From assembly GCA_965217865.1 (NCBI GenBank), contig CBDCJO010000002.1:1280001-1344000 (forward strand): a DNA stretch of 64,000 nt, given 5' to 3'. Positions 8,433 to 64,000 of this stretch are shown here, in pieces. Each line of letters starts with the position of its first letter. The stretch's first letter is position 1. Origin of the DNA: Candidatus Latescibacterota bacterium (lineage in GTDB: Bacteria > Latescibacterota > UBA2968 > SICM01). The notes under the pieces were generated by a model, which searched no databases, was not told the DNA's origin, and worked only from the letters and a program-made list of their open reading frames with translations. The position numbers and the translations under genes were made by a program.

Positions 8433-9958
8433 CAGCCCGTTGAAGAACTACCTTTCAACGCACATAAACGGAAAAGACGCCTGGAGTGCGGGTCGGATAA
8501 ATCAAGGTAAGGAGATTGAGCAGGAGACGCTGATAAGAGGTTAAAAAGGTGACCGAGGGCAGCAAACGTGATTGTAGGACGAGCAGTAGACGCTGCAAGG
8601 CCTTGGCCAGGTCCTGGAGGGCCTTCGGAGTACCTACGCCCATCACTTTGCGCATGAGCAGAGCCAGGTTGCAGCCCCCGATGTGGATCAGCAAACGCTT
8701 GAGGATATTGCCGCGGTCTCTCAAGTGCAACCTGCGCATGCCACCGGTATCATATGTGTGAGCGATGGTTCTTTCCACCCGTTCTGCACGACTTCGGCGC
8801 AAGGCCTTGCCGCGATCTCCCTTGATCCGGCGTCGATTCGCATATACCGCGGCCTGCTCATCTCGTCGGCCGTTCCACTTGCGGCGTCCCCGATCCGGTT
8901 CTGAAATGTAACTCCGGATGCCGCCTTGCTTCAGACTGGTCAATACATCGTTGCTATGATATCCTTTGTCCGCAACCACCTCCCGTATACGCTGTCTGTG
9001 CAAACGTTTGGCAGCTTTTTCGTCCTTCGCGACCTGCTTGAGATTGAGCGGCGCCTCGAGCAGCGTCCAGGGCAACGACTCGGTATCTCCTTCATCTGCT
9101 CCCGACAACGCCACTGCCACAATGGCATTGGTGTCCAGATCCACCGCGTGCTCCACCTTGTGCGCCATGTGCGTGCGACCGTCCTTCATCTTAGCGATCT
9201 TGGCATCCGGGTCGTGCGGGTGCTCCCAGTCCTGGTTCGATCCCTTCTTCGGTCGCTTCTTATCGATCTTGGACAAGTCCTCGCGGGTAGGCGTTTCAAT
9301 GCCCGAGGCCTTGGCCAGATTCTCAAGGAATGCCTGGTAGCCTTCACCCGTGTCACGGCGTACAATGCTGCGCATCGCGGCGTTGGCCTCCAGTGTCGTA
9401 GCATCCACGCCCAACGTCTTCCCCTTCACCAGACCCGCTTTGCACAAGACCCTCAGGATCCACTTGAAAACCGCTTCGTGAACTTCCAAGGGAAGCCGAT
9501 GCCGGATGCGAGACAGGCTGGAATGATCCGGGGTCTGTTCGTCAAGGGCATACCCCAAAAACCGGCGCAACGTCAGCGAGTCAGATACACGCCATTCGAT
9601 CCCACGTTCCGAATCAAGTCCCTCGAAATACCCAATCAAAAGCATCCGAAAATAAACCCCGGGCGGAATGCCCTTGCGACCCATATGAGGAGCGTAATAC
9701 CGCTGGCAAAGCCCTTCGACGAACTCGTCGAAGCCGTTCGCCCCCAATACCTGATTCAGCTTCTCGTAGAACGGATGACCCGGAGATTTCACCAAAGTGT
9801 TCGATGCGATGAACAGGTTTTCCTGTCTCTGTCGTCCTCGTTTTCCCATTGCCATTTGCTCGTCCTCCCTTCTCAGTTTGAACCTGATATATCATAGGAC
9901 CAAACCACAAGGAAAGACAACAGTCATCTTGGCATAAACGCACTTTTTCAACAGGCTG
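8433..9958 (-). mobile_element. IS5/IS1182-type insertion sequence, copy 1 (1526 bp)
   Basis: Imperfect 17-bp terminal inverted repeats CAGCCTGTTGAAAAAGT / CAGCCCGTTGAAGAACT; CTAG at 8429-8432 and 9959-9962. Confidence 0.95.
8455..9855 (-). CDS. DDE transposase with DUF772-like N-terminus
   Basis: SERGI, TPDHSSLSR, VDAT, ADKGY and RAERVER; 466 aa. Confidence 0.95.
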   Translation of the reverse strand: MAMGKRGRQRQENLFIASNTLVKSPGHPFYEKLNQVLGANGFDEFVEGLCQRYYAPHMGRKGIPPGVYFRMLLIGYFEGLDSERGIEWRVSDSLTLRRFLGYALDEQTPDHSSLSRIRHRLPLEVHEAVFKWILRVLCKAGLVKGKTLGVDATTLEANAAMRSIVRRDTGEGYQAFLENLAKASGIETPTREDLSKIDKKRPKKGSNQDWEHPHDPDAKIAKMKDGRTHMAHKVEHAVDLDTNAIVAVALSGADEGDTESLPWTLLEAPLNLKQVAKDEKAAKRLHRQRIREVVADKGYHSNDVLTSLKQGGIRSYISEPDRGRRKWNGRRDEQAAVYANRRRIKGDRGKALRRSRAERVERTIAHTYDTGGMRRLHLRDRGNILKRLLIHIGGCNLALLMRKVMGVGTPKALQDLAKALQRLLLVLQSRLLPSVTFLTSYQRLLLNLLTLIYPTRTPGVFSVYVR

Positions 9959-19820: not shown

Positions 19821-21346
19821 CAGCCTGTTGAAAAAGTGCGTTTATGCCAAGATGACTGTTGTCTTTCCTTGTGGTTTGGTCCTATGATATATCAGGTTCA
19901 AACTGAGAAGGGAGGACGAGCAAATGGCAATGGGAAAACGAGGACGACAGAGACAGGAAAACCTGTTCATCGCATCGAACACTTTGGTGAAATCTCCGGG
20001 TCATCCGTTCTACGAGAAGCTGAATCAGGTATTGGGGGCGAACGGCTTCGACGAGTTCGTCGAGGGGCTTTGCCAGCGGTATTACGCTCCTCATATGGGT
20101 CGCAAGGGCATTCCGCCCGGGGTTTATTTTCGGATGCTTTTGATTGGGTATTTCGAGGGACTTGATTCGGAACGTGGGATCGAATGGCGTGTATCTGACT
20201 CGCTGACGTTGCGCCGGTTTTTGGGGTATGCCCTTGACGAACAGACCCCGGATCATTCCAGCCTGTCTCGCATCCGGCATCGGCTTCCCTTGGAAGTTCA
20301 CGAAGCGGTTTTCAAGTGGATCCTGAGGGTCTTGTGCAAAGCGGGTCTGGTGAAGGGGAAGACGTTGGGCGTGGATGCTACGACACTGGAGGCCAACGCC
20401 GCGATGCGCAGCATTGTACGCCGTGACACGGGTGAAGGCTACCAGGCATTCCTTGAGAATCTGGCCAAGGCCTCGGGCATTGAAACGCCTACCCGCGAGG
20501 ACTTGTCCAAGATCGATAAGAAGCGACCGAAGAAGGGATCGAACCAGGACTGGGAGCACCCGCACGACCCGGATGCCAAGATCGCTAAGATGAAGGACGG
20601 TCGCACGCACATGGCGCACAAGGTGGAGCACGCGGTGGATCTGGACACCAATGCCATTGTGGCAGTGGCGTTGTCGGGAGCAGATGAAGGAGATACCGAG
20701 TCGTTGCCCTGGACGCTGCTCGAGGCGCAGCTCAATCTCAAGCAGGTCGCGAAGGACGAAAAAGCTGCCAAACGTTTGCACAGACAGCGTATACGGGAGG
20801 TGGTTGCGGACAAAGGATATCATAGCAACGATGTATTGACCAGTCTGAAGCAAGGCGGCATCCGGAGTTACATTTCAGAACCGGATCGGGGACGCCGCAA
20901 GTGGAACGGCCGACGAGATGAGCAGGCCGCGGTATATGCGAATCGACGCCGGATCAAGGGAGATCGCGGCAAGGCCTTGCGCCGAAGTCGTGCAGAACGG
21001 GTGGAAAGAACCATCGCTCACACATATGATACCGGTGGCATGCGCAGGTTGCACTTGAGAGACCGCGGCAATATCCTCAAGCGTTTGCTGATCCACATCG
21101 GGGGCTGCAACCTGGCTCTGCTCATGCGCAAAGTGATGGGCGTAGGTACTCCGAAGGCCCTCCAGGACCTGGCCAAGGCCTTGCAGCGTCTACTGCTCGT
21201 CCTACAATCACGTTTGCTGCCCTCGGTTACCTTTTTAACCTCTTATCAGCGTCTCCTGCTCAATCTCCTTACCTTGATTTATCTGACCCGCACTCCAGGC
21301 GTCTTTTCCGTTTATGTGCGTTGAAAGGTAGTTCTTCAACGGGCTG
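19821..21346 (+). mobile_element. IS copy 2 (1526 bp)
   Basis: Same inverted repeats; flanks TTAG (19817-19820) and CTAG (21347-21350). Confidence 0.95.
19924..21324 (+). CDS. DDE transposase
   Basis: 466 aa; protein identical to copies 3 and 4. Confidence 0.95.
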   Translation: MAMGKRGRQRQENLFIASNTLVKSPGHPFYEKLNQVLGANGFDEFVEGLCQRYYAPHMGRKGIPPGVYFRMLLIGYFEGLDSERGIEWRVSDSLTLRRFLGYALDEQTPDHSSLSRIRHRLPLEVHEAVFKWILRVLCKAGLVKGKTLGVDATTLEANAAMRSIVRRDTGEGYQAFLENLAKASGIETPTREDLSKIDKKRPKKGSNQDWEHPHDPDAKIAKMKDGRTHMAHKVEHAVDLDTNAIVAVALSGADEGDTESLPWTLLEAQLNLKQVAKDEKAAKRLHRQRIREVVADKGYHSNDVLTSLKQGGIRSYISEPDRGRRKWNGRRDEQAAVYANRRRIKGDRGKALRRSRAERVERTIAHTYDTGGMRRLHLRDRGNILKRLLIHIGGCNLALLMRKVMGVGTPKALQDLAKALQRLLLVLQSRLLPSVTFLTSYQRLLLNLLTLIYLTRTPGVFSVYVR

Positions 21347-32483: not shown

Positions 32484-34009
32484 CAGCCCGTTGAAGAACT
32501 ACCTTTCAACGCACATAAACGGAAAAGACGCCTGGAGTGCGGGTCAGATAAATCAAGGTAAGGAGATTGAGCAGGAGACGCTGATAAGAGGTTAAAAAGG
32601 TGACCGAGGGCAGCAAACGTGATTGTAGGACGAGCAGTAGACGCTGCAAGGCCTTGGCCAGGTCCTGGAGGGCCTTCGGAGTACCTACGCCCATCACTTT
32701 GCGCATGAGCAGAGCCAGGTTGCAGCCCCCGATGTGGATCAGCAAACGCTTGAGGATATTGCCGCGGTCTCTCAAGTGCAACCTGCGCATGCCACCGGTA
32801 TCATATGTGTGAGCGATGGTTCTTTCCACCCGTTCTGCACGACTTCGGCGCAAGGCCTTGCCGCGATCTCCCTTGATCCGGCGTCGATTCGCATATACCG
32901 CGGCCTGCTCATCTCGTCGGCCGTTCCACTTGCGGCGTCCCCGATCCGGTTCTGAAATGTAACTCCGGATGCCGCCTTGCTTCAGACTGGTCAATACATC
33001 GTTGCTATGATATCCTTTGTCCGCAACCACCTCCCGTATACGCTGTCTGTGCAAACGTTTGGCAGCTTTTTCGTCCTTCGCGACCTGCTTGAGATTGAGC
33101 TGCGCCTCGAGCAGCGTCCAGGGCAACGACTCGGTATCTCCTTCATCTGCTCCCGACAACGCCACTGCCACAATGGCATTGGTGTCCAGATCCACCGCGT
33201 GCTCCACCTTGTGCGCCATGTGCGTGCGACCGTCCTTCATCTTAGCGATCTTGGCATCCGGGTCGTGCGGGTGCTCCCAGTCCTGGTTCGATCCCTTCTT
33301 CGGTCGCTTCTTATCGATCTTGGACAAGTCCTCGCGGGTAGGCGTTTCAATGCCCGAGGCCTTGGCCAGATTCTCAAGGAATGCCTGGTAGCCTTCACCC
33401 GTGTCACGGCGTACAATGCTGCGCATCGCGGCGTTGGCCTCCAGTGTCGTAGCATCCACGCCCAACGTCTTCCCCTTCACCAGACCCGCTTTGCACAAGA
33501 CCCTCAGGATCCACTTGAAAACCGCTTCGTGAACTTCCAAGGGAAGCCGATGCCGGATGCGAGACAGGCTGGAATGATCCGGGGTCTGTTCGTCAAGGGC
33601 ATACCCCAAAAACCGGCGCAACGTCAGCGAGTCAGATACACGCCATTCGATCCCACGTTCCGAATCAAGTCCCTCGAAATACCCAATCAAAAGCATCCGA
33701 AAATAAACCCCGGGCGGAATGCCCTTGCGACCCATATGAGGAGCGTAATACCGCTGGCAAAGCCCCTCGACGAACTCGTCGAAGCCGTTCGCCCCCAATA
33801 CCTGATTCAGCTTCTCGTAGAACGGATGACCCGGAGATTTCACCAAAGTGTTCGATGCGATGAACAGGTTTTCCTGTCTCTGTCGGCCTCGTTTTCCCAT
33901 TGCCATTTGCTCGTCCTCCCTTCTCAGTTTGAACCTGATATATCATAGGACCAAACCACAAGGAAAGACAACAGTCATCTTGGCATAAACGCACTTTTTC
34001 AACAGGCTG
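32484..34009 (-). mobile_element. IS copy 3 (1526 bp)
   Basis: Same inverted repeats; CTAT duplicated at 32480-32483 and 34010-34013. Confidence 0.95.
32506..33906 (-). CDS. DDE transposase
   Basis: 466 aa, same element. Confidence 0.95.
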   Translation of the reverse strand: MAMGKRGRQRQENLFIASNTLVKSPGHPFYEKLNQVLGANGFDEFVEGLCQRYYAPHMGRKGIPPGVYFRMLLIGYFEGLDSERGIEWRVSDSLTLRRFLGYALDEQTPDHSSLSRIRHRLPLEVHEAVFKWILRVLCKAGLVKGKTLGVDATTLEANAAMRSIVRRDTGEGYQAFLENLAKASGIETPTREDLSKIDKKRPKKGSNQDWEHPHDPDAKIAKMKDGRTHMAHKVEHAVDLDTNAIVAVALSGADEGDTESLPWTLLEAQLNLKQVAKDEKAAKRLHRQRIREVVADKGYHSNDVLTSLKQGGIRSYISEPDRGRRKWNGRRDEQAAVYANRRRIKGDRGKALRRSRAERVERTIAHTYDTGGMRRLHLRDRGNILKRLLIHIGGCNLALLMRKVMGVGTPKALQDLAKALQRLLLVLQSRLLPSVTFLTSYQRLLLNLLTLIYLTRTPGVFSVYVR

Positions 34010-48755: not shown

Positions 48756-48877
48756 CTCTAATACCTCCTGTCACCTACCCATCACCGTTCGGCAATCGGT
48801 TAAAACCGAAGAAGCAAAAAAACCAACATGAAATTGCAAGTGATACGACTCACCTTGTACCACAATGATTTTATCCT

Positions 48878-49936: not shown

Positions 49937-50000
49937 TTTTCAAACATTTCCCCAATAGCGAACCAGATCACAAAAGACCCCGGCCCTGGATTCCAACCTT

Positions 50001-50495
50001 TCAGACTTTCTCGTCTTTTCCTGAGCGTTCCTTAATCAGCGCAATCTGATCCCGGAGTTTGGCGGCCTCTTCAAAATTTTCCTCGGCAACCGCCTTTTTG
50101 AGATCACCCTGAAGGATTTCGATTTTTTCTCTGTTTGCATCGAGGTTCGCAGGGACGGAACCGTGGTCCGATTGGCGTTCGACTCCGTGAATCCGCTTGA
50201 AAACCCGGTCCAGTTCCGACTCGAAGGCCAGATAACAACCATCGCATCCAAACTGGCCTGTCTTTTTGAACTCCGCGAAAGTCAATCCACAAGAGGAGCA
50301 CGTCAAGCTCGGGACTTCGATCTCCTCATTTTCGTTCTGCGCCAGAAGGCTGGAAAGCGTCACAGTTACACCTTCGCTTCCACCACTTCTTTTTTCCGCG
50401 CACTCAATACAAAGATGATGAACGGTCTTTTCCCCGTCTAGAATCTGGATAAACGGGACCGAGGCTGGATTTTTTTTACAGTCTTGACAAACCAT
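50001..50495 (-). CDS. mcsA: McsA (CxxC zinc motifs plus UVR domain)
   Basis: Four CxxC motifs and [11 protein letters not shown]. Confidence 0.92.
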   Translation of the reverse strand: MVCQDCKKNPASVPFIQILDGEKTVHHLCIECAEKRSGGSEGVTVTLSSLLAQNENEEIEVPSLTCSSCGLTFAEFKKTGQFGCDGCYLAFESELDRVFKRIHGVERQSDHGSVPANLDANREKIEILQGDLKKAVAEENFEEAAKLRDQIALIKERSGKDEKV

Positions 50496-50503
50496 CGGGA
50501 TTT

Positions 50504-51250: not shown

Positions 51251-52772
51251 CCCCGGACTTCTCGGCGATCTCCCGCCCTTCTTCCGGCCTCATGAGAGGG
51301 AAGAGAATCACGTCACGAATGGAGGGAGAGTCGGTCAATAACATAACCAACCGGTCGATCCCGATCCCAAGTCCCCCGGTGGGTGGCATGCCGTGTTCGA
51401 GGGCCCTGACATAGTCTTCGTCCAGAACCTGCGCTTCTTCGTCTCCGATCGCCCTCAACGCCATCTGAGCTTCGAATCGAGACCGTTGTTCAAACGGGTC
51501 ATTTAATTCCGAAAAAGCGTTTCCTCTCTCCCCCGCGGCGATGAATGGTTCAAACCGTTCTGTGAGTGTCGGGTCGTCGCGATGCCTTTTTGCAAGTGGT
51601 GAGGTCTCAACAGGATAGTCCTTGATGATCGTTGGCTGGACAAGGTGGTCAACCACACAGGCGTCGAAGATCCCATCGATCAATTTCCCCCGGTTCATCC
51701 CAACCTTATCCTCCACCCCAAGTCGCTTGCACGCGGTGCGAAGTTCATCATCCGACGATGCCTTCACATCGATCTTACCATACTCCCATATGGCGTCCAG
51801 CATCGACAACCGCCGCCAGGGAGGCGTCAGGTCGATCTGTTGACCCTGATAAGAGATGATCTTGGTTCCGTTTACCTCTTCGGCTGCTGCGGAGATCATA
51901 TCCTCAGCAATCCCCATCATGTCATGATAATCGGCATTCGCCTGATAAAGCTCCAGGAGCGTGAATTCAGGGTTGTGGGACCGGTCGATCCCCTCATTTC
52001 GAAAAACCTTCGAGAATTCGTAGACCTTCTCAAACCCACCGACGATTAACCTTTTGAGATAGAGCTCATTGGAGATCCGGAGGTAGAGGGGCATTCCAAG
52101 AGCATTATGAAAGGATTTGAACGGTTTCGCGGAGGCCCCACCGTAGATCGGTTGAAGCACAGGGGTGTCGACCTCCAGGAAACCCCTCTCATCCAGGAAA
52201 CGGCGGAGGGAGGAGACGATCCGCGTGCGCTTTCTAAAAATTTCCCTCACTTCCGGGTTCAACTGAAGGTCTAGATATCGATAACGGTACCTTTTCTCCT
52301 TGTCCGAGAACGCATCGAAAACCACCCGCTTACCATTCTCGGTGCGCTCCTTGGGGATCGGCGGAGGACGCAGGGATTTTGTCTGGATTTCCAATTTCTC
52401 AACACCGAGGGTCATCTCCCCCATCCGAGTTCGGAAAACCTTCCCCGAAACCCCCACGATGTCTCCCAGGTCCAAAAGACCCCACAACTCGAACTGCTCG
52501 TCTCCGACAACATCCAGGCGAACCTGGATCTGCAACCGTCCATCCTCGTCCCAAAGATCCCCGAACGCCGCCTTCCCGTGGCCTCGAACAGCCATCAAAC
52601 GGCCTGAGCAGGCCACACCCTCTTTCGATGCCTCCAGTGTCTCGAATTGTTCTTTGACATCTCCTGATCTATGGGTTACTTCAAACCTGTAGGGATACGG
52701 GTTGATATCTTTCTGTCGAATTTTTTCGAGTTTCTGCTTCCTCTGAGCAAAAAGCGGATTTTCGGAAGCCAA
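51231..52772 (-). CDS. lysS: Lysine--tRNA ligase (class II)
   Basis: RYLDL, GGASAKPF, FRNEG, HNPEF and GMPPTGGLGIGIDR. Confidence 0.97.
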   Translation of the reverse strand: MASENPLFAQRKQKLEKIRQKDINPYPYRFEVTHRSGDVKEQFETLEASKEGVACSGRLMAVRGHGKAAFGDLWDEDGRLQIQVRLDVVGDEQFELWGLLDLGDIVGVSGKVFRTRMGEMTLGVEKLEIQTKSLRPPPIPKERTENGKRVVFDAFSDKEKRYRYRYLDLQLNPEVREIFRKRTRIVSSLRRFLDERGFLEVDTPVLQPIYGGASAKPFKSFHNALGMPLYLRISNELYLKRLIVGGFEKVYEFSKVFRNEGIDRSHNPEFTLLELYQANADYHDMMGIAEDMISAAAEEVNGTKIISYQGQQIDLTPPWRRLSMLDAIWEYGKIDVKASSDDELRTACKRLGVEDKVGMNRGKLIDGIFDACVVDHLVQPTIIKDYPVETSPLAKRHRDDPTLTERFEPFIAAGERGNAFSELNDPFEQRSRFEAQMALRAIGDEEAQVLDEDYVRALEHGMPPTGGLGIGIDRLVMLLTDSPSIRDVILFPLMRPEEGREIAEKSGDDRSDA

Positions 52773-52893
52773 CAGGGTCTCCTGATAACCAAGGTATTCG
52801 GGATTGATACGTGGGGAAAGATTCGGCGAGGTGTCAATTATGAAGATCGCTTGAAAAGACTGATCATCAAAATTGACAAGCGGTTGCGAAAAA

Positions 52894-52922
52894 AATATAC
52901 AACATCCCTATGAATCTGTCAA
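52894..52922 (-). promoter_or_regulatory. Sigma70-type promoter for the lysS operon
   Basis: Minus-strand TTGACA-N17-TATATT. Confidence 0.6.
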
Positions 52923-52970
52923 GATTTACATATTTTGGATTTCCGCCACCGGGATCCCCTTTTTAAAGGG

Positions 52971-52999
52971 TTGACAGACCACTACCTGCGGCTTAATAT
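52971..52999 (+). promoter_or_regulatory. Sigma70-type promoter, divergent from lysS
   Basis: TTGACA-N17-TAATAT. Confidence 0.6.
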
Positions 53000-53087
53000 T
53001 GCGACTTTGATCTACATGATGTGTGAAGTGATTGTTCGGTTCTGTGGTTTTCCTGAGTTGGCATTGGGGTGTTTGAGGACCCCGATC

Positions 53088-53408
53088 ATGTTCGAAAAAC
53101 CAATCCGAGAAAGAATCTACCAGACGGTCTCTTTAATTCCCGAGGGGACCGTGGCCACATACGGCCAGATCGCCGTCATTGCGGGCGGAGGCTTTGGTCC
53201 CAGACAGGTCGGGAGGGCCCTTGCGGAGATGCCCCGGAAAGTGAGTTGTCCGTGGCACCGGGTGATCAATGCACGGGGGGAGATCCCCCGCCGTAAAGGC
53301 TCAAAAACAGCTCATCTGCGTCAGCAGAGACGCCTGGAGAGGGAAGGGATTATCTTTAAAAGCGGTCGAGTGGATCTTCAAATCTACAGGTGGTACCCCC
53401 AAGTATAG
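53088..53408 (+). CDS. Alkyltransferase-like protein (MGMT family, PWHRV type)
   Basis: IPEGTVATYGQIA, RQVG and PWHRVIN. Confidence 0.9.
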   Translation: MFEKPIRERIYQTVSLIPEGTVATYGQIAVIAGGGFGPRQVGRALAEMPRKVSCPWHRVINARGEIPRRKGSKTAHLRQQRRLEREGIIFKSGRVDLQIYRWYPQV

Positions 53409-53491
53409 GAAAAAAACCGGTTCAAGACAATAAAGGTGCATCCGAAGCGATAACCCAATTTTTTCCAAAGTCTTATCGAAAGGCAAAAACT

Positions 53492-54634
53492 ATGAAGATC
53501 ACAGCCTTAAACACTTTCATAGCAAAATACAGAGGCCGACCGGGAGCCCTCGTCAAGGTGGAGACCGACGAAGGCCTTTACGGATGGGGAGAGGCCTACG
53601 GCAGCGGACCAGAGCTCTCGGTCAAACCCATCGTCGACTACATTTTCGAGATGATCAAGGGAGAGGACCCCCGGCGCATCGAGTACATCATGATGAAGCT
53701 GCACCAGCAATTCCGCTTTCCCCAGGGCGGACCCAGCCTGGCGGCCATCTCAGCGATCGATCATGCGCTATGGGATATCAGCGGAAAGGCGGCGGATCTC
53801 CCCGTCTATATGCTCCTCGGTGGGGCAGCCCGGGACCGGGTCCTCGTCTATCATGGTGTTGGAGGCGGGGACGGGGTGGAAATCGCGGAAAAAACCCGGC
53901 AGTTGAACGAGGAGTGGGGATTTACCGTCTTTAAAACCAGCCCTTACCGGCTGGAGCCCGACAACAATCGGTGGGGCCGAGTCTGCGCTGCTGCCGCCGC
54001 CTACTTCGAGGAGATCCGAAAGCACACGCCGGAAGACTGGGAGTTCGCCTTCGATCCGCACGCCAAGATCTTCGAGCCCATCCGGGGCCTGCAATTGGCG
54101 AATGCCCTCGCGCCATACGATCCATACTTCTACGAGGAGCCCATGCGGCCCGAGCACATCCCGGCCTGGTCGCGCCTCCGCTCCCAGATGAAGGTCCCTC
54201 TGGCCACGGGCGAGGACCTCTACACCCGGTTCCAGTTCCTCGACCTGATGGCAGCTCAGGGCGCGGACATCATCCAGCCCGACATCTGCATCTGCGGCGG
54301 CCTGCTCGAAATGCGCAAGATCGCTGCCATCGCCGAGGCGCATTACGTCAGCGTTGCGCCCCATAACCCGATGGGCCCAGTGGCCACGGCCGTCAATCTT
54401 CACTTCGCCGCGGCCACGTCCAACTTCAAGGTCCTGGAGTACGTCCTGCCGGAGCCCGGTCAATGGGAGGGCTGGCTGGATGATCCCTACCTGCCCAAGG
54501 ACGGGTATCTTGAGCTCCGGGACCGCCCAGGGCTCGGGGTGGATGTGAACGAAGAGGCCTTGAGCGAAGAAAACTATTTCCACTGGCAGCGCACCTGCCC
54601 GGTCCGACCGGACGGTTCGACGGGTTATATTTGA
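53492..54634 (+). CDS. Mandelate racemase/enolase superfamily dehydratase (DgoD-like)
   Basis: GWGE, AIDHALWDI, EEP, ATGE, QPD and APHNP. Confidence 0.9.
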   Translation: MKITALNTFIAKYRGRPGALVKVETDEGLYGWGEAYGSGPELSVKPIVDYIFEMIKGEDPRRIEYIMMKLHQQFRFPQGGPSLAAISAIDHALWDISGKAADLPVYMLLGGAARDRVLVYHGVGGGDGVEIAEKTRQLNEEWGFTVFKTSPYRLEPDNNRWGRVCAAAAAYFEEIRKHTPEDWEFAFDPHAKIFEPIRGLQLANALAPYDPYFYEEPMRPEHIPAWSRLRSQMKVPLATGEDLYTRFQFLDLMAAQGADIIQPDICICGGLLEMRKIAAIAEAHYVSVAPHNPMGPVATAVNLHFAAATSNFKVLEYVLPEPGQWEGWLDDPYLPKDGYLELRDRPGLGVDVNEEALSEENYFHWQRTCPVRPDGSTGYI

Positions 54635-54719
54635 GTGCGCAGGCTGCGTCCCAGCAGTCTTCACTTTTCAATTTTACTTTCCGATATCTTTCCCATCCCC
54701 CATCCCTCATCTTCATCCT

Positions 54720-55667
54720 TTATTTCAGGAAAGATTCGACCACTTTTCTCGCCGGCAGCGCCGTCATCCCCCCTTGTCTTGTGGCTGTGATCCCTCCTGC
54801 CGCATTGGCCAAACGAACTAGCCCGCGCAGAGTCGGTTCCTCCATATCTTCCGGGAGAAGGCTTGATTCCAGTATTCCAAGAATCAATCCCGCGAAAAAG
54901 GCGTCCCCGCAGCCCGTCGAGTCGACCTCCTCCACGCTGAACGCCGGTACATATCCTTCCGCCCTACCGTTACTGAAATACGCCCCTTCGGCCCCAAGGG
55001 TGACCAGGCAAAGCCTTGGCCCCTGATCCAGAATCCACTGACTCCCGGCCTTCAGGTCACGCGTTCCGGCCAACAATTCGAGCTCGACCTCATTCAGTTT
55101 ACAAACGGTTGCTCCCCGAACGCCTTCTAGAATTCCCTCCCGGGCGGCTTCAAGGCCGGGCCAGAGGCTCGGTCGCAGGTTGGCATCATAAGCCACAACA
55201 GAATGGGCCTGGTTTGCCCAGTTTGACCCCTGAAGGGCGGCTTCTTTTCCCTCGCCGGTCAACGTAACCGAGCCATACAGAAATACCTCGGCTGAGGCGA
55301 TATAGGATCTGTCAAGATCCTCGAACCTGAGTTTTGAATCCGCGGTGCGATAGATGGTGAACTCCTGTTCGCCCGTCGTCGGCGAGGCCACCAGGGCCAT
55401 CGTCGTGGGACTGCCCGTAACCTGACGAAAATGTGTGGTATCCACACCCTCGTTTTTTAAGAGTTCGACCAACATCAGACCGAAAGGATCATCTCCAACC
55501 CTTCCGATAAAACCCACATCAACACCGAGCCTTGAGAGCGCCACTGCGACATTTGCCGGAGCCCCTCCCGGGGCAGGGATAAACCGAAGAGCCTCCTTCA
55601 AAGAGACCCCGGCTGGCTCGGCGAACATATCTATGATCGCCTCGCCCAGACAAACCACTTTGGGCAT
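54720..55667 (-). CDS. PfkB family carbohydrate kinase (fructokinase-like)
   Basis: GGAPANVA, DANLR and DSTGCGDAF. Confidence 0.92.
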   Translation of the reverse strand: MPKVVCLGEAIIDMFAEPAGVSLKEALRFIPAPGGAPANVAVALSRLGVDVGFIGRVGDDPFGLMLVELLKNEGVDTTHFRQVTGSPTTMALVASPTTGEQEFTIYRTADSKLRFEDLDRSYIASAEVFLYGSVTLTGEGKEAALQGSNWANQAHSVVAYDANLRPSLWPGLEAAREGILEGVRGATVCKLNEVELELLAGTRDLKAGSQWILDQGPRLCLVTLGAEGAYFSNGRAEGYVPAFSVEEVDSTGCGDAFFAGLILGILESSLLPEDMEEPTLRGLVRLANAAGGITATRQGGMTALPARKVVESFLK

Positions 55668-55806
55668 AAAGCTTTCCTTCCGTCAAGAACAAGCAACAAA
55701 TGCTGAAAAATATTGCGACGGTTCGGACTTAAACAAAGAGCCATCTCAGGAGAAAGTGTATATAACTATATGATTAACAATGTGCTATGCACATTACACA
55801 TAATTA

Positions 55807-55822
55807 TGGCATAAATGTTGCA
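55807..55822 (+). promoter_or_regulatory. Sigma54 (-24/-12) promoter
   Basis: TGGCATAAATGTTGCA with exact GG-N10-GC spacing, in an AT-rich intergenic region. Confidence 0.75.
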
Positions 55823-55896
55823 TAATAATTTTGTCAAAGACAACCCGGTATGTTACGCCTTTGAACGTTTTTCCACTACATGACTGGAGTCATACG

Positions 55897-56076
55897 ATGA
55901 AATCCCAAACGAAAACCCTCGTGCTTCCGGATAATCGGGGCAACCTGTTCGTCAACCTGATCACAGCCCTGGCCTTTCTGACGATCGGTTACGGTATCTT
56001 TAAGATGGAATTCGACCTCTACGTCCCGACTGAAAGCCAGGGAGCTGAAACCATTACGGCAGGCATCAGGGGCTAA
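55897..56076 (+). CDS. 59-aa single-TM small protein
   Basis: GGAG RBS, ATG 55897, one hydrophobic segment LFVNLITALAFLTIGYGIF; own promoter and terminator. Confidence 0.65.
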   Translation: MKSQTKTLVLPDNRGNLFVNLITALAFLTIGYGIFKMEFDLYVPTESQGAETITAGIRG

Positions 56077-56097
56077 CCCGGTCGTCGACACAAACCA

Positions 56098-56130
56098 GGG
56101 GTGTATCGCAAGTCGATACACCCCTTTTTT
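56098..56130 (+). terminator. Intrinsic terminator
   Basis: GGGGTGTATCG-CAAGT-CGATACACCCC-TTTTTT. Confidence 0.88.
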
Positions 56131-56268
56131 ATGGCCTAAAAGAAATCCCTCCAATCCCCTGTCATCACCTCCCTTTCAATGGCTCCAAACATCGATTATA
56201 ATATTCTTTCAATCCGGTTTCTTTGATTGCGCCATCTCAATATAATATTTAAATTGGAAATTCCCCTT

Positions 56269-57168
56269 TCAATTTAAATATCCGAACGCTTTCAAGTCTC
56301 CGTCCTTCTTCCGCCAATTTTCCCGGACCTTTACCCACAGATCGAGATAGACCGGGCGGTCGAGGAATTTTTGTATACGGCGCCGGGCTTCGGTACCGAT
56401 GCTTTTGAGCATCTTCCCGTTTGCCCCAATGACAATCCCCTTCTGTGAACCCTTCTCCACACAGACATTGGCACGCACGTAAGTCTTGGCCTCACGCTCC
56501 TTGAATTCCTCCACAGTGATCGCAGTCGCGTAAGGAACCTCATCTCTAAGAATGTCGAAAACCACCTCCCGGATCAATTCGGACACAAAAAACCGTTCGG
56601 GCTGATCCGTCAGAACCTCGTCCGGATACAGTCTAGGGCCGAAAGGAAGGCCTTCTTCGATTTGGTTTAACAGATCTTCGACACCTTGACCCGTCAGCCC
56701 TGAGATCGGCAGGACCTGATCGTGGCCAACCGCTTCCCGGACACGAGAGATTCCGGTTTCGATACGAACTGCCGAACTCAGGTCGATCTTGTTCAAGGAG
56801 ATGATAACCCGCCCCTTCGCCCCATTCAGTGTACTCTTGAAATCATCGTCCAAGTCCGAATCCAGGGTTTGAACGTCCAGTAGGCCCAAGACGACATCAG
56901 CCTCCCTGAGTCGGCGGGTCACGTGCGTTCGCATGATCTCCTGGAGGCGATACCGCGGGTCCAGAAGCCCCGGGGTATCCCAGAAAACGACCTGCGCGTT
57001 CGGCCGGTTGACGATGCCCAGAAGGGGAATGCGTGTGGTCTGCGGTTTGGGTGTAATGATGGCCAGACGTTCGCCGACAAGGGTGTTGAAAAGGGTCGAC
57101 TTTCCGGCGTTGGGCTTTCCGACAATGGCAACGCCCCCGGAGCGGAAACATTTCTCATTGGACGACAT
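56269..57168 (-). CDS. era: GTPase Era
   Basis: GKPNAGKST, KPQTTR, DTPG, NKID and a KH domain (GIVIG..G); start at ATG 57168. Confidence 0.95.
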   Translation of the reverse strand: MSSNEKCFRSGGVAIVGKPNAGKSTLFNTLVGERLAIITPKPQTTRIPLLGIVNRPNAQVVFWDTPGLLDPRYRLQEIMRTHVTRRLREADVVLGLLDVQTLDSDLDDDFKSTLNGAKGRVIISLNKIDLSSAVRIETGISRVREAVGHDQVLPISGLTGQGVEDLLNQIEEGLPFGPRLYPDEVLTDQPERFFVSELIREVVFDILRDEVPYATAITVEEFKEREAKTYVRANVCVEKGSQKGIVIGANGKMLKSIGTEARRRIQKFLDRPVYLDLWVKVRENWRKKDGDLKAFGYLN

Positions 57169-57172
57169 ATCT

Positions 57173-58204
57173 TCAGAACTGCGCCGTTGCCGAAACTCTG
57201 TAGCTGTTGTTAAGGTCCCCGTGAGATAAAAATGCGAGGTCCACCCCGAAACGTCTGTAGAACCGCACACCGCCTCCGGCCGTGAAACGGCGCTCCTGGG
57301 CCCCGAGACGGAGGGAGACCAGCTCCCGATATGAGTACTCGATGCCGAAGTTGAACCTCCGCCCATCCTCGATACTCACCGCATCGCGGCCAATGCTGGC
57401 GCTGAAACTACCCATGATGCGACCCTTGACGAAGGTTGGATGATAGGTATAGGCCGCACCGATCAGTGCGGTGGGATTAATCTTATCCGTTGCTGCGCTT
57501 GAATAAGTGATTCGACTCTCCGTGAGATCTCGAACGACAAGCCCGACCGTCAGACCTGGGGTGACCTCCCCGAGGAAACCCAGGTCGAGGCCGTAACCGA
57601 AACCCGTGCCCGAACCGGTTTTGCGGCGGATTAATTTTACGCTGCCACCAATTGCGAATAGTTTCCGGATCGGATGGGCGTAAGATAAATGGACGGCATA
57701 ATCAGCCGAGCTCACATCTCCCACCCGAACCGGTCGATTGTCCGAACCAATGGGCCGGTTTGGATCCTCCAGGACGGTTATCGGGATGTTGTCGACCCCT
57801 ACCCGAAGAAGACTGAACCCGACGCTGCCAACATCCTGAACCGTTGTGCCGAAATTGACCTGATCGTGTGCGACCAGACCTCCAAACAGTTCTGCGTGTT
57901 GGGCGTGGACCTCACGGCCGCGGATTCGAGTTAATCCCGCTGGATTCCAGGTGCCTGCGGTTGCATCGTCGCTCACCGCGACGAAAGCGCCTCCCATTCC
58001 CAACGCCCTCGCCCCGGAACCCAGGTGGAGAAATTCCCCCGCGAACTTGGCACGCGCGTACGCTGCATCAGTGCCGGTAAAACATAATGCCAGGATCAAA
58101 AGATGTGGGATGAACCTTCGAATCCTGCCTTCATCCCTTTCTCCGATTCCCACCCCTTTCCAATTATCCCGAGGAGCCCTGTTAAGGGCGGTTCGAGGTA
58201 TCAT
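57173..58204 (-). CDS. PorV/PorQ-like (UPF0164) outer-membrane beta-barrel
   Basis: GARALGMGGAFVAVSDDATA..WNPAGL, amphipathic strands and a C-terminal Phe. Confidence 0.8.
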   Translation of the reverse strand: MIPRTALNRAPRDNWKGVGIGERDEGRIRRFIPHLLILALCFTGTDAAYARAKFAGEFLHLGSGARALGMGGAFVAVSDDATAGTWNPAGLTRIRGREVHAQHAELFGGLVAHDQVNFGTTVQDVGSVGFSLLRVGVDNIPITVLEDPNRPIGSDNRPVRVGDVSSADYAVHLSYAHPIRKLFAIGGSVKLIRRKTGSGTGFGYGLDLGFLGEVTPGLTVGLVVRDLTESRITYSSAATDKINPTALIGAAYTYHPTFVKGRIMGSFSASIGRDAVSIEDGRRFNFGIEYSYRELVSLRLGAQERRFTAGGGVRFYRRFGVDLAFLSHGDLNNSYRVSATAQF

Positions 58205-58348
58205 CCTTCATCCTTGGTTCTTCTAACCTCCCGCCCAGAGAGACCAAATCCACTGTCAATCATTTGAGCGCTGAACTTTTACAACAACTTAACAACCCCC
58301 CCAAGATTTGTCAAGGTGTACGAGATCCAAGAGTGTTAAGGAGGCAGC

Positions 58349-59326
58349 ATGTATTCCAGGATCGCTGATGAGACACTGAAATCGGGCGAGCTGATGGAGG
58401 TTGGGGTGGTCTTGGGTCCCGACAATAACCACTCGGAAAAAATCAAACCCTTCCTCTCACACAAGCCGGGAGTCTGGGGGTGGCACATCGAAAAATCCCT
58501 CAAAGAAGGTCTGGACGGACTCGAAACCAGGTATTATATCGGAATGTTGGACGGCGCCATCATCAGCAGCATAATGACCGTTGAAAGCCATCAAACCGGG
58601 ATCCTCGCTCACGTCTTCACCAATCCGGACCAGAGACGGAAAGGGGCATGTGACCACCTCATGCGACACCTGATGGCAGACTTTCGCACACGCGGGGGAG
58701 GTCAGCTCGTCCTCGGAACAGGTTTCGATTCGCCGCCGTACTGGATATACCACAAATATGGATTCCGATGCCTCTACCCGGGGACGGGTGACATGCGATA
58801 CGCGACCGAGACGGATTTCGACCTCCGGCACTTCACGTGTGAAACCTCCAGGGTCATTGAGCTCGGCTGGAAGGACTGGCCTCGCTTGAACGCCCTCTGC
58901 GCAGCCCCCGGTCAGGATATCGTTCGGGGGGTTTCCTGGGGAATCATCGGGCAGATCAACTTCGAGGGGGGGTTCCTGGACATGAAGCGGGCATTGGAAA
59001 CCGATGAGGGGACCCAGGCGCGATTGCTGGAGTCTGAAAACGGATCTGTTGTGGGCTTCGCCTCTGTGTCTCCCGACCGACGCTGGGGAGGCGATACTTT
59101 CATCCTCGACTGCTTCTCACACAGCAACTACAACGGAGAACTGGGTCGGCTGCTGGAGGCGTTTCAGCTGCCCTCGGGAAAAATTCAGGCCTATGCCGAT
59201 GCGGATGGAAAGGACAAGATCCAGACCCTTCAAGAAGCGGGGTTCGAGCTGGAGGCTACGCTGGAGAGACAGATGATGTGGCGGGGGGAACGTCTGGACG
59301 TGCTGCTGATGAGCAGGTTCGGTTGA
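58349..59326 (+). CDS. Tandem GNAT-family N-acetyltransferase
   Basis: VFTNPDQRRKGA, YHKYGF and AGFELEA; AGGAGG RBS. Confidence 0.8.
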   Translation: MYSRIADETLKSGELMEVGVVLGPDNNHSEKIKPFLSHKPGVWGWHIEKSLKEGLDGLETRYYIGMLDGAIISSIMTVESHQTGILAHVFTNPDQRRKGACDHLMRHLMADFRTRGGGQLVLGTGFDSPPYWIYHKYGFRCLYPGTGDMRYATETDFDLRHFTCETSRVIELGWKDWPRLNALCAAPGQDIVRGVSWGIIGQINFEGGFLDMKRALETDEGTQARLLESENGSVVGFASVSPDRRWGGDTFILDCFSHSNYNGELGRLLEAFQLPSGKIQAYADADGKDKIQTLQEAGFELEATLERQMMWRGERLDVLLMSRFG

Positions 59327-60537
59327 GGCCGGAAGGAAACACTGTCAGCCATCGGTCGACCGGGGTAGTTCATACGTCAAACCCTTTTCCGGGGCCAGGA
59401 CATCGATCCACGGATACTTTTCCCGAATCGCGCAGGTCATCCACCGGATCGATTCCGGTTCTCCGTGGACAAGAACAACACGTGACGGCGTTAACTCCTC
59501 GACCAACCGGAGAAGTTGCAGGCGATCCGCGTGGGCGGAAAAATGGAACCGCTCCACCTCGCACGCGACATCGATAAGCGCCTCGTCAAAACCAAAGGGG
59601 ACCCTGTCTCCAGGCTGCGAAGTCAGGATGCAATGTCCGGGGGCATCGGGATCCACGTACCCCACGAAGAAGATGGCATGCCTGGCGTCTGGAAGCATTT
59701 CGCAGGCGATCCGATGTGAAAGGGTGCCGCGCTCCATCATCCCCGATGAGACGACGATCACGCTCGGCCTTTTCAGGTGAACCCCCTCCGTCGGATCCCC
59801 TCTGGGAAGCTGTCGGATATCGAGCCGATCAATCACGAGACTTGGATCGCGACGCCTTGAACAACCCGCTGTTCGATCGTAAACCCGGGACACCGAGCAA
59901 CCAAGACCCGCCGTGAAGATCTCCACCTCGGGAATCCGTCCCTGGGACCGAAGCCGGTCTAGGGTGACCAGTATCTCCTGCGTCCGGCCCAGGGCGAACG
60001 CAGGGATGAGGACGCTCCCCCCCCCCGGACTATGACCTGGGTGATCCCCCTAGCCAGTCTTCGGACTTCATCATGCCTCCGCACCCCGACCGTCTCCGGG
60101 TTCGCAGCCAGGGTGGATTCAAGGATTAGCGTGTCGATGGGCCCATCGGGATAGACCGCACCTTTGAGGACCTCCTGATCCGACCGGGAGGTGTCCCCGG
60201 TGTAGAATACGGATTCGGAATCCCCGCTCAAAAGGATCCCGGCTGCACCCAGAATATGACCCGCATCGAAGAAACGGACCCTGATGTCAGAGGCGTTTGG
60301 CACCTGGGATTGGATCTGAAACTCCCGATCGCAGCTCATCCCGTGGAAACAATACGAGACCATCTCCACATCTTCGTGGGTGTATAACGGATATTCCCGA
60401 ACACCCAACTCCGAGTGCTGTCGCTCCATCACCCGCACCGTGCTGTGGAGCATCTCGGGAGCAAGCTCGTGCGAGGGTCGGGTCATATAAACCAGCGCGT
60501 GTGGATTCCTTCGGAGGGCGACGGGAAGGGCCCCTAC

Positions 60538-62063
60538 CAGCCTGTTGAAAAAGTGCGTTTATGCCAAGATGACTGTTGTCTTTCCTTGTGGTTTGGTCCT
60601 ATGATATATCAGGTTCAAACTGAGAAGGGAGGACGAGCAAATGGCAATGGGAAAACGAGGACGACAGAGACAGGAAAACCTGTTCATCGCATCGAACACT
60701 TTGGTGAAATCTCCGGGTCATCCGTTCTACGAGAAGCTGAATCAGGTATTGGGGGCGAACGGCTTCGACGAGTTCGTCGAGGGGCTTTGCCAGCGGTATT
60801 ACGCTCCTCATATGGGTCGCAAGGGCATTCCGCCCGGGGTTTATTTTCGGATGCTTTTGATTGGGTATTTCGAGGGACTTGATTCGGAACGTGGGATCGA
60901 ATGGCGTGTATCTGACTCGCTGACGTTGCGCCGGTTTTTGGGGTATGCCCTTGACGAACAGACCCCGGATCATTCCAGCCTGTCTCGCATCCGGCATCGG
61001 CTTCCCTTGGAAGTTCACGAAGCGGTTTTCAAGTGGATCCTGAGGGTCTTGTGCAAAGCGGGTCTGGTGAAGGGGAAGACGTTGGGCGTGGATGCTACGA
61101 CACTGGAGGCCAACGCCGCGATGCGCAGCATTGTACGCCGTGACACGGGTGAAGGCTACCAGGCATTCCTTGAGAATCTGGCCAAGGCCTCGGGCATTGA
61201 AACGCCTACCCGCGAGGACTTGTCCAAGATCGATAAGAAGCGACCGAAGAAGGGATCGAACCAGGACTGGGAGCACCCGCACGACCCGGATGCCAAGATC
61301 GCTAAGATGAAGGACGGTCGCACGCACATGGCGCACAAGGTGGAGCACGCGGTGGATCTGGACACCAATGCCATTGTGGCAGTGGCGTTGTCGGGAGCAG
61401 ATGAAGGAGATACCGAGTCGTTGCCCTGGACGCTGCTCGAGGCGCAGCTCAATCTCAAGCAGGTCGCGAAGGACGAAAAAGCTGCCAAACGTTTGCACAG
61501 ACAGCGTATACGGGAGGTGGTTGCGGACAAAGGATATCATAGCAACGATGTATTGACCAGTCTGAAGCAAGGCGGCATCCGGAGTTACATTTCAGAACCG
61601 GATCGGGGACGCCGCAAGTGGAACGGCCGACGAGATGAGCAGGCCGCGGTATATGCGAATCGACGCCGGATCAAGGGAGATCGCGGCAAGGCCTTGCGCC
61701 GAAGTCGTGCAGAACGGGTGGAAAGAACCATCGCTCACACATATGATACCGGTGGCATGCGCAGGTTGCACTTGAGAGACCGCGGCAATATCCTCAAGCG
61801 TTTGCTGATCCACATCGGGGGCTGCAACCTGGCTCTGCTCATGCGCAAAGTGATGGGCGTAGGTACTCCGAAGGCCCTCCAGGACCTGGCCAAGGCCTTG
61901 CAGCGTCTACTGCTCGTCCTACAATCACGTTTGCTGCCCTCGGTCACCTTTTTAACCTCTTATCAGCGTCTCCTGCTCAATCTCCTTACCTTGATTTATC
62001 TGACCCGCACTCCAGGCGTCTTTTCCGTTTATGTGCGTTGAAAGGTAGTTCTTCAACGGGCTG
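60538..62063 (+). mobile_element. IS copy 4 (1526 bp)
   Basis: Same inverted repeats; flanks CTAC (60534-60537) and ATAG (62064-62067). Confidence 0.95.
60641..62041 (+). CDS. DDE transposase
   Basis: 466 aa, same element. Confidence 0.95.
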   Translation: MAMGKRGRQRQENLFIASNTLVKSPGHPFYEKLNQVLGANGFDEFVEGLCQRYYAPHMGRKGIPPGVYFRMLLIGYFEGLDSERGIEWRVSDSLTLRRFLGYALDEQTPDHSSLSRIRHRLPLEVHEAVFKWILRVLCKAGLVKGKTLGVDATTLEANAAMRSIVRRDTGEGYQAFLENLAKASGIETPTREDLSKIDKKRPKKGSNQDWEHPHDPDAKIAKMKDGRTHMAHKVEHAVDLDTNAIVAVALSGADEGDTESLPWTLLEAQLNLKQVAKDEKAAKRLHRQRIREVVADKGYHSNDVLTSLKQGGIRSYISEPDRGRRKWNGRRDEQAAVYANRRRIKGDRGKALRRSRAERVERTIAHTYDTGGMRRLHLRDRGNILKRLLIHIGGCNLALLMRKVMGVGTPKALQDLAKALQRLLLVLQSRLLPSVTFLTSYQRLLLNLLTLIYLTRTPGVFSVYVR

Positions 62064-62302
62064 ATAGGTGGTCGAGATGACAATGGCTCAGAATAACCGC
62101 ACAAAGGGGAAGTTGCCCGATCCTGTCGAAATCCGGGAGACCTTCATAACCGATACGTCGAGGATGAAACCCCGCGTCCAGCATAACGGCGGCCCCCTCC
62201 ATATCGATCAGGTAGGAATTCGCCCCGATCTCATCACCCCCGCCCAGAACCGTAAACTTCAAGTCAGACCGCCCCTTCGTTTTGCCGGACTGTGTTGTAC
62301 AC

Positions 62303-63262
62303 TCACTGAACCTTGTATCCCAGCCGTTTGTCGACAACGTTTAGCAGTGGTTCTCCCTTCGCGAACCGTCTCATATTCTCTACGAGAACGCGGTCCATGT
62401 TCCCGTATCCCTCCGGTGACAGACCTGCGACGTGAGATGTAACGACCACATTGGGCATGTCCCAGAGCGGGCTGTCTTCTGGAAGCGGCTCCTTCTCGAA
62501 AACGTCCAGCCCTGCTCCTGCGATTTCGCCTTCCCGCAACGCCGCGATCAGATCAGCCTCGACCACGATTGAACCCCGCGCAATGTTGATCAGGTAAGCG
62601 GTCCGCTTCATCATCGAGAGTCTTTCACGGTTTACCATCCCTCGGGTCTTCTCCGTAAGTGGCAGCCCGACGACGATGGCGTCGGATTCCCGAAAAACGA
62701 AACTGATGTCCTCCGGCCCGAAAACCTCATCGACCCCTTCGGGGGGGGATTTCACCTGCGCGTCCAGCGCGATCACCCGCATTCCGAAGGGTTTGGCCCG
62801 TCGGGCTACAGCCATGCCGATGCTTCCAAGTCCAAGCACTCCAACGGTCTTCCCCGCCAGTTGCTGCACCGGAATTTTACGGTTCCAGCCTCGCCTCAGC
62901 TGCAAGTCGTGATACGTCCTCATTTGACGGGTCAGCGAGAGCAGCAGGGTCAATGCATGATCGGCCATAGCCGCATCGAGAGCCCCAGCCGTGTTCGTAA
63001 TGATAACATCGCTGTCGATCATCTCCGAATAGAGCATGGTCTCGAATCCCACCCCGATGCTCTGCACCCATCTCAGCTTCCGGGCCTTAAGGAAAAACGC
63101 CTTGGGCAGCCGGCCGTACACCGCGTCGGCATTCGCAATCTCCGCCTGAATCAGCTCCGGCTCTTTGGCCAGAACCAGGTTGTATTCCGGGACCTGGCGC
63201 CTGATTCGATCCGCCATCCCCGGCTCGTTCTCCCAGATCATAAGCAGCTTCAACTTGGGCAT
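62303..63262 (-). CDS. D-2-hydroxyacid dehydrogenase
   Basis: GLGSIG, NIARG, AGLDVFEKEP and SHVAG. Confidence 0.93.
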   Translation of the reverse strand: MPKLKLLMIWENEPGMADRIRRQVPEYNLVLAKEPELIQAEIANADAVYGRLPKAFFLKARKLRWVQSIGVGFETMLYSEMIDSDVIITNTAGALDAAMADHALTLLLSLTRQMRTYHDLQLRRGWNRKIPVQQLAGKTVGVLGLGSIGMAVARRAKPFGMRVIALDAQVKSPPEGVDEVFGPEDISFVFRESDAIVVGLPLTEKTRGMVNRERLSMMKRTAYLINIARGSIVVEADLIAALREGEIAGAGLDVFEKEPLPEDSPLWDMPNVVVTSHVAGLSPEGYGNMDRVLVENMRRFAKGEPLLNVVDKRLGYKVQ

Positions 63263-63476
63263 GCCCTCGCTCCTTTACTGAGAATTTCTGGGTGAGTTAT
63301 ATTTTATCCGATTTGGGATGCATCTGCAGCGTTGATTCTCCGCGTGGACGTTTCGTTCCTAAACCAAAGGGGGAGAGTAGGCTTTGGGGATTAAGAAGTA
63401 CCGCGCGACCAAGCCCTTTCCCGATCTAACCTTTTACCGACATGAATTTTTTCGATAGCAACTGCATGCTTGGCCC

Positions 63477-63535
63477 ATCGCGGAGTGCATGGCCGCTGTT
63501 CCGTTGCAGACGTACAGCGCGTACTTCACGCCCAT
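63477..63535 (-). pseudogene. Short relic resembling a DegT/DnrJ/StrS aminotransferase
   Basis: MGVKYALYVCNGTAAMHSAM resembles the GVK.A....NGTAA.H.A motif. Confidence 0.45.
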
Positions 63536-63722
63536 GCCTTTGGGCGCCTGAATAGCCCAAAGACTCGCAGCGTATCCTGATTTCCAGCAACGACAATTTA
63601 CGCCATCGGCTGCGGGGATCAAACACTTTATCGCATACAAAGGAATTGCATTGAACCACGCTGTGCATTCATATATATTTATTCGCTCCCCTCCACACTC
63701 CTAAAATCCTCCTGCGTGTATT

Positions 63723-64000
63723 GTGACCGTTCTCTTCAAAAAGAAAGTCCTCGTGATGGGTCTGGGCCTCTTCGGCGGGGGACTGGGCGTGACCCGGTTT
63801 CTCGCCAGGGAAGGTGCTCGGGTCACCGTGACCGATCTCAGGTCTGAAGAGGACCTCAGGGAGTCCGTCGAGGCCCTGAAGGGCCTGCCGGTTTCATTGA
63901 AATTGGGGGGCCACGACGAAGCCGATTTTCTGGCGGCCGACCTGATCGTGGCCAACCCCGCCGTTCCCCGCCACTCAGACTACCTGTCCCTGGCCGAACG
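63723..64000 (+). CDS. murD: UDP-N-acetylmuramoyl-L-alanine--D-glutamate ligase, 3'-truncated by the window edge
   Basis: Manual translation: [14 protein letters not shown]...GARVTVTD...LGGH...[11 protein letters not shown]. Confidence 0.88.

Follow-up and report, generated by a model that had tools for sequence, protein, structure and literature searches.

Unequal target flanks without loss of host DNA at copies of an IS1182-like insertion sequence in a Latescibacterota genome

The 64,000-nucleotide stretch analysed here (the window) belongs to a Candidatus Latescibacterota bacterium (assembly GCA_965217865.1, contig CBDCJO010000002.1, positions 1,280,001 to 1,344,000) and contains four copies of an insertion sequence (IS) with the ends CAGCC...GGCTG. 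Copy 4 (60538..62063, + strand) is 1526 bp long and is one of 87 full copies in the genome. Its left terminal inverted repeat (60538..60554, +) matches the right repeat (62047..62063, −, taken from the sequence) at 14 of 17 bases. The element encodes a transposase of 466 aa (60641..62041, +) with DUF772 and DDE_Tnp_1 domains and conserved residues D151, D296 and E361. Copy 4 interrupts a beta-CASP metallo-beta-lactamase gene on the − strand, the 5′ part of which (62068..62337, start approximate) runs to HCHLDH, while the 3′ part (59345..60533) resumes from GALP. The two 4-bp flanks of copy 4 are unequal, CTAC on the left (60534..60537, +) and ATAG on the right (62064..62067, +).

The copy 4 region (44100-64000) was compared with contigs of four runs; runs X2-X9, with small word shares, were left out. 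A contig from one of the four, X12, joins 60534 directly to 62065, so that the empty allele reads CTAG and encodes His-Leu-Gly. The orthologs in two genomes of the same family (G001 and G002) both read HCHLDHLGALP without a gap, with Leu at the site. Hence the sequence-only reading was right that no host DNA is missing at copy 4, while its predicted empty allele CTAC (His-Val-Gly) turned out to be wrong. As the empty allele is CTAG, the filled site differs from it by G to C on the left (60537) and by C to A on the right (62064); both bases are foreign, and both adjoin the element. The left junction was recovered with 0 differences in contigs of X10 and X11, from two studies, and the right junction was carried by an X10 contig, the two junctions lying on separate contigs. 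Copy 4 is therefore not mis-polished, which disposes of an alternative that had been considered for this site. Because copy 4 is absent from a near-identical strain, it is either young or was cleanly excised there; the empty allele in X12 may thus predate the insertion or follow clean excision. In the host gene, the 3′ part lies in two reading frames split near 59950, where the orthologs have a 487-codon open frame; since an X10 contig and the window show 0 differences, this frameshift looks real.

The flanks of the four window copies were confirmed as first read. Copy 1 (8433..9958, −) is perfect with CTAG|CTAG, copy 2 (19821..21346, +) has TTAG|CTAG, copy 3 (32484..34009, −) is perfect with ATAG|ATAG, and copy 4 has CTAC|ATAG. 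In the table of all 87 copies of the host genome (G000; # numbers below are rows of this table), every copy has TA at flank positions 2 and 3 on both sides (N-TA-N). Identical flank pairs occur in 51 copies, compared with 28 expected under random pairing, and a perfect 4-bp duplication was thereby shown to be the usual outcome at an N-TA-N target. A pure TA duplication with fixed variable ends was rejected, as concordant pairs other than CTAG number 18 against 4 expected. The remaining 36 pairs are discordant, at position 1 only in 15, at position 4 only in 14 and at both in 7. Only six different 4-mers are used genome-wide. CTAG dominates, ATAG stands on the right of 18 of the 87 copies, and among the 174 flanks neither TTAA nor any 4-mer departing from CTAG at two positions was found. 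It had been noticed that the right 4-mer of each mismatched window copy equals the perfect duplication of another copy. This is indeed so, but when only six 4-mers occur and 18/87 copies have ATAG as their right flank, the match is no more than chance would give.

Half of the discordant copies (18/36) could be judged, and they comprise 9 gapless, 4 rearranged and 5 probably rearranged sites. Discordance without loss of host DNA is thus real at copy 4 and at 8 further sites. An empty paralog in the same genome settles two of them: #68 (CTAT|CTAG) has an empty paralog CTAG with flanks 99-100% identical, and #82 (CTAG|CTAA) has an empty paralog CTAA. At #52 (CTAG|CTAT), 103 of 104 spanning homologs have Tyr, where CTAG would give a stop codon. 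The same logic applies to #95, for which the two usable alignments among 5 loci show Tyr or Phe and the best ortholog has Tyr. Site #74 aligns without a gap to orthologs and to a paralog, whereas the evidence for #24 and #98, an alignment to 77% paralogs, is weaker. At #93 both close orthologs have Pro, which suggests that the target was CTAG and that the foreign base is the outer one, unless the host codon had already changed; a rule that the outer base is always the host's was dropped for this reason. Only inner bases are involved at 7 of the 9 gapless sites, and wherever the right inner base is foreign (copy 4, #24 and #74) it is A. Point mutation was rejected as the cause, since it predicts 0.5 changes at the variable positions (P of 9 or more = 4e-9) and the equally numerous TA positions show none.

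Broader tests were applied as well. Among all 87 sites, DNA paralogs adjoining both flanks, which provide an unbiased test, qualify 12, of which 10 are concordant and 2 discordant (95% interval 2-48%); the empty paralogs at these sites show a 4-base core between the flanks. The codon-model contiguity test was able to judge only 8 of the 87 sites, and at the thresholds used no orthologs were obtained for #52, #77, #78, #21 and #46, the first of which was later settled by the spanning homologs. Discordant sites span long open reading frames (ORFs) more often than random pairs do (9/36 at 80 codons, p = 0.004). However, copy 2 passes this ORF-span test at 65 codons despite a deletion, so an open frame alone is no proof of contiguity. 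For #77 and #78, the assembled junctions were confirmed. Copy #77 (L071:6184-8526) interrupts an aminoglycoside adenylyltransferase-like gene, with NTP_transf_2 upstream and AadA_C downstream. Its left junction is unbroken in contigs, and no empty-site joint appeared among those listed. At the right junction (L071:6597, G000:C2:4216596), contigs of three of the four runs, from two studies, stop right after CTA; the same picture would be expected if the inner base had a second allele.

Rearrangement, the classical source of unequal flanks, was missed by the sequence-only reading. Copy 2, taken there as a possible record of copy 1 as donor, instead stands next to a 48-codon deletion in a gene containing tetratricopeptide repeats (TPR), as seen against both orthologs, and is a case of classical adjacent deletion. 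Copies #64, #66 and #67 have flanks in common with one another and appear to result from duplication or inversion through element copies. One part of a DEAD-box helicase gene seems to lie to the right of #66 and the other to the left of #64 (G000:C2:3356318-3673602), and #67 shares their other flanks. For #16, #46, #75, #78 and #84, the translations indicate that host DNA has probably been deleted. A classical cause, either adjacent deletion or recombination between copies, hence applies to about half of the judged discordant copies.

The transposase gives matches over cut-off to PF05598 (DUF772, 71.6 bits) and PF01609 (DDE_Tnp_1, 26.9 bits) within one ORF, and its motifs suggest that D151, D296 and E361 form the catalytic triad. 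The best NCBIfam match is IS1182 (NF033551), with 164 bits against a cut-off of 270, and all 20 homologs tested likewise score below that cut-off (138-183). The IS5 profiles are also missed, the best being NF033581 at 79.8 against 140. On these profile matches the element is an unnamed IS1182-like DDE insertion sequence, and its clade is mostly unnamed and also large, as 8000 of 8000 scored candidates passed. The structure model of the transposase is confident (pLDDT 90.8), and residues 410-456 form a single long helix at its C-terminus, free of cysteines. When solved folds were ranked with VIA-align, Tn5 (1mm8) came first (Z 16.0, 277 residues, rmsd 4.5, 10% identity), Tn4430 second (Z 13.2) and piggyBac third (Z 11.8, rmsd 5.9, 293 aligned), the last being the comparison that bears on an RNase H-like core with a piggyBac-type insertion domain; the Foldseek match to piggyBac is weak (E 0.043). 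A Tn5-like fold shared at 10% identity does not by itself show membership in the IS4 family.

Besides the 87 full copies, the inventory of the element in this genome includes 15 single ends. In 13/87 copies the transposase gene has one additional C close to its 3′ end (alignment column 1397), and 475-aa transposase forms of the same organism are present in the protein set. Seven copies (#4, #15, #30, #45, #72, #73 and #96) lie at a CTAG adjoining the end of another repeat. The repeat next to #4 contains an ORF that, judged by its motif, looks like an IS630-type transposase, and the ~195 bp repeat next to #72 and #73 is possibly its miniature derivative.

The anomaly at the gapless sites is real and is not explained by gap-filling transposition. 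As regards the origin of the foreign bases, 13 copies have C|A at position 1 and a single copy has A|C (p = 0.002). Flank reshuffling between copies does not produce such an asymmetry, and together with the gapless sites it rules out pure reshuffling. The left inner T is linked to a single-nucleotide polymorphism (SNP) at element position 20 (3/7 vs 3/87, family-wise p = 0.023), while the outer-base control gives p = 0.97. The lack of any flank with two departures from CTAG is what pairing of entire donor 4-mers in the gap would lead one to expect. The position-1 asymmetry, the SNP linkage and the zero double departures, read together from flank and element sequences, point to the flanks of other copies as the source. 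A single circle-junction spacer supplying both bases was rejected as unlikely; it would have to be ATAC for copy 4 or ATAT for #98, and each is absent from the 174 flanks. Other parts of the initial proposal have to be revised. Simple segregation into target, IS and donor cannot yield copy 4, where both inner bases are foreign, and copy 3, named as its donor, differs from it at one site, whereas seven other copies are identical to copy 4.

We propose that short 5′ donor overhangs probably anneal within the 4-nt gap of the target and become ligated, without the trimming and filling that would otherwise follow. The transposase would release both ends of the element, each bearing a 5′ overhang of up to 4 nt of donor flank, either through a Tn5- or piggyBac-like hairpin or by a second nick. 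Both hairpin-type enzymes, Tn5 and piggyBac, are among the closest solved folds, which favours this reading. The overhang could pair in the gap, as donor flank and target would always have the central TA in common and in many cases the outer base too. Trimming with fill-in, nick translation or mismatch repair would mostly restore the target and leave a perfect duplication, while a ligated mismatch would sometimes be retained as a donor base, mostly an inner one. If replication acted by itself, just one side would come to hold a donor base; 7 of the 9 gapless sites agree with this, and #98 possibly does. For both sides to be fixed on one molecule, as in copy 4, repair toward the donor would have to occur twice and would probably be strand-unbiased. 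MutS and MutL of the host are assumed to take part in this repair; the MutS1 and MutL proteins score above cut-off. Likelihood fits, in which the carry on both sides came to about 0.7, preceded the discovery of the rearranged pairs, and the rates from them were therefore not used.

Gene conversion between copies offers another route to foreign inner bases. Heteroduplex or repair synthesis that runs past the element end into the TA micro-homology would overwrite the inner base after an ordinary insertion. Consistent with this, the SNP haplotypes are mosaic, inner bases are altered more often than outer ones, the same SNP linkage is predicted, and among the copies identical to copy 4 one has CTAC on the left and one has ATAG on the right. 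However, random copies match over only about 3 bases beyond the inner base, and RecA normally requires far more homology than that. Copy 4 would also take two conversion events, though it is absent from the near-identical strain. Nor are discordant copies older: the 36 of them hold 3 private substitutions and the 51 concordant ones 17 (not significant), and the 9 gapless discordant copies have none. Conversion is kept alive as a rival by the mosaic copies, and we regard it as unlikely.

A shifted register of otherwise ordinary transposition could likewise bring in donor bases. If the transposase cut one base outside the 3′ end and attacked one base further in, a donor base would travel on the transferred strand, and TA or 3 bases would be duplicated by gap filling. 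Both foreign inner bases of copy 4 would then be accounted for without mismatch repair, and the restriction to inner bases at 7/9 gapless sites would follow. Yet this scheme leads one to expect about 4 to 6 flanks with two departures from CTAG (an estimate that includes rearranged copies), against 0 seen among 174, and it offers no way to a foreign outer base, which is suggested at #93 and perhaps at #98. Its chances seem slim, a little below those of gene conversion.

Local copying errors were considered as well. The base adjoining the element might be altered by template switching at the inverted ends (quasi-palindrome correction) or when gap filling misincorporates a nucleotide. The left inner base does complement the right inner base at #52, #82, #95 and #98; the rule fails at copy 4, #24, #68 and #74. 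A foreign right inner base that is always A matches the ATAG excess among right flanks rather than random error. Such errors are the least credible of the alternatives.

Finally, all discordance might be classical or artefactual, with rearrangements and polishing errors at repeat edges and with copy 4 as a one-off accident. The proven deletion at copy 2, the shared flanks of #64, #66 and #67 and the apparent deletions at #16, #46, #75, #78 and #84 agree with this, 'hybrid' duplications after rearrangement are described in the part of PMC7002104 consulted, and polishing could be involved at #52, #82 and #95, where the base is the majority one. On the other hand, the copy 4 junctions occur in independent contigs and both of its foreign bases are minority bases; #68, #74, #24 and #98 are gapless with minority bases too, for which polishing is an unlikely source; and the junctions at #77 and #78 stood as assembled. 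A wholly classical or artefactual origin is thus very improbable, if not quite so much as copying errors.

Several observations weigh against ligated donor overhangs. Nick-directed repair should favour the target strand, and donor bases on both sides therefore need an extra assumption. No transposition intermediate was seen, the overhang and the hairpin being deduced from flank patterns only. No donor was identified, and the pair CTAC|ATAG occurs in no other of the 87 copies. The SNP linkage is absent on the right side (p = 0.62), and the copies are mosaic or chimeric, as 77 of 153 SNP pairs fail the four-gamete test. Ordinary rearrangements among the discordant copies dilute the donor-base signal. 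The foreign base at #52, #82 and #95 is G, the majority base, and could have been introduced by polishing; copy 4 has the single read-based empty allele, none having been found for #77 or #78 in the four runs. As for the likeness to piggyBac, the fold matches are weak, with none at E <= 0.001 when the transposase model was searched with Foldseek, and Tn4430 ranks above piggyBac in the fold comparison. Among related elements, G121 is perfect in 9/9 resolved copies (10 fetched), those elsewhere are mostly perfect, and none of the discordant copies in the relatives examined was shown to be gapless, several of these copies looking rearranged.

Relatives at 50-67% identity share the CAG...CTG ends and the N-TA-N targets, and TTAA flanks occur in a few of them. 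Discordant copies were counted in G023 (1/12 resolved, 14 fetched), G007 (1/5), G041 (8/17), G042 (1/4), G089 (2/4) and in plasmids (1/7). In G041, a member of the Terriglobia (L042-L051, L057-L059, L137, L145, L153 and L154), the discordant copies mostly combine a variable left 4-mer with CTAG on the right, and every copy scored has one TAG in its transposase match. The plasmid copy on pLB1 shows a perfect duplication against its empty allele CTAA. The homologous element on pCHQ1 of Sphingobium indicum UT26S (L112, NC_014007.1) has CTAA|CTAG, and the 6 other plasmid copies are perfect; an empty allele of the discordant UT26 copy was searched for and none was found. Non-classical flank behaviour is thus shown in one genome only. 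For the wider proposal, that a widespread unnamed IS1182-like clade transposes as piggyBac does, with 4-nt overhangs, scarless excision, synthesis-free insertion, donor bases written into the target owing to its degeneracy and excision that may change a base, so that flanks would partly record the donor copy, we would put the chances somewhat under even.

DDE transposition is classically recognised by identical repeats on either side of the element, and a mismatch between them is usually taken as a sign of rearrangement; here the flanks are unequal without any host DNA having moved, and a mismatch by itself does not tell rearrangement apart from insertion chemistry. Should donor overhangs be the true cause, a bacterial element would follow the route without DNA synthesis that piggyBac is known for, excision without a scar and insertion that changes a base could be tested in bacteria, and a small CTAG-targeting tool might be at hand. 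A test is practical, as a close homologue (50% identical, with the same end structure) resides on plasmids of cultured sphingomonads.

Among known systems, IS5 and IS701 elements use 4-bp YTAR or CTAG targets, and the present element resembles them in its TA-centred 4-bp target with CTAG preferred, but its transposase scores below the IS5 profile cut-offs. PiggyMac makes 4-nt staggered cuts centred on TA. The invariant central TA of our element fits this geometry, which its own cuts may share. Tn5 duplicates 9 bp of its target, in contrast to the 4 bp duplicated here, while Tn5 (IS50) of the IS4 family is the best structural match to the transposase model. In the part of PMC7351741 (Chen et al. 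2020) drawn on here, Tn5 follows the same order of steps as piggyBac, but its hairpin is flush with the end and takes no flank. With the IS1182 family the element shares its best profile match, the layout of DUF772 and DDE_Tnp_1 and the short terminal inverted repeats. IS1272, which belongs to that family, replaces inverted-repeat targets and makes no duplication, according to the portion of Wan et al. 2017 (PMC5678879) used; by contrast, the present element makes 4-bp duplications at N-TA-N, and the empty allele of its pLB1 homologue is a single CTAA. Unequal or 'hybrid' duplications after rearrangement and IS-promoted adjacent deletion, both covered in the same part of PMC7002104, account for copy 2 and probably for about half of the discordant copies that could be judged. 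Both require that host DNA be lost or exchanged, and at the 9 gapless sites this is excluded. For donor bases in the flanks of bacterial IS elements, including IS5 and IS701, no account was found in the literature searched, a scope outside which subscription papers, ISfinder and supplements fell.

The comparison with piggyBac is the closest in behaviour. According to the same part of Chen et al. 2020 (PMC7351741), the point of attack by piggyBac lies in the flank, 4 nt away from the end; the hairpin is opened to a 4-nt overhang, the complementary ends left at the donor are repaired seamlessly, and the catalytic triad is DDD. The element of this study likewise has a tetranucleotide target and a 4-bp stagger, and its 4-nt donor overhangs are deduced from the flanks. 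A 2013 paper by Li on piggyBac reportedly speaks in its title of mutations at noncanonical integration sites. The sequence-only reading had presented the element as a candidate piggyBac- or PiggyMac-like IS that carries donor flank bases. Donor origin stands as the best explanation of the foreign bases, but a piggyBac-family protein does not, given the DDE triad and Tn5 as the closest fold. The enzyme is bacterial and IS1182-like, the third residue of its catalytic motif is Glu and not Asp, and the C-terminal cysteine-rich domain of piggyBac is absent from the transposase model. We think it fairly likely that the element works like piggyBac; it stands outside that family. Its target, moreover, is a degenerate N-TA-N centred on CTAG and not TTAA, so that mismatched overhangs would be routine here and not rare.

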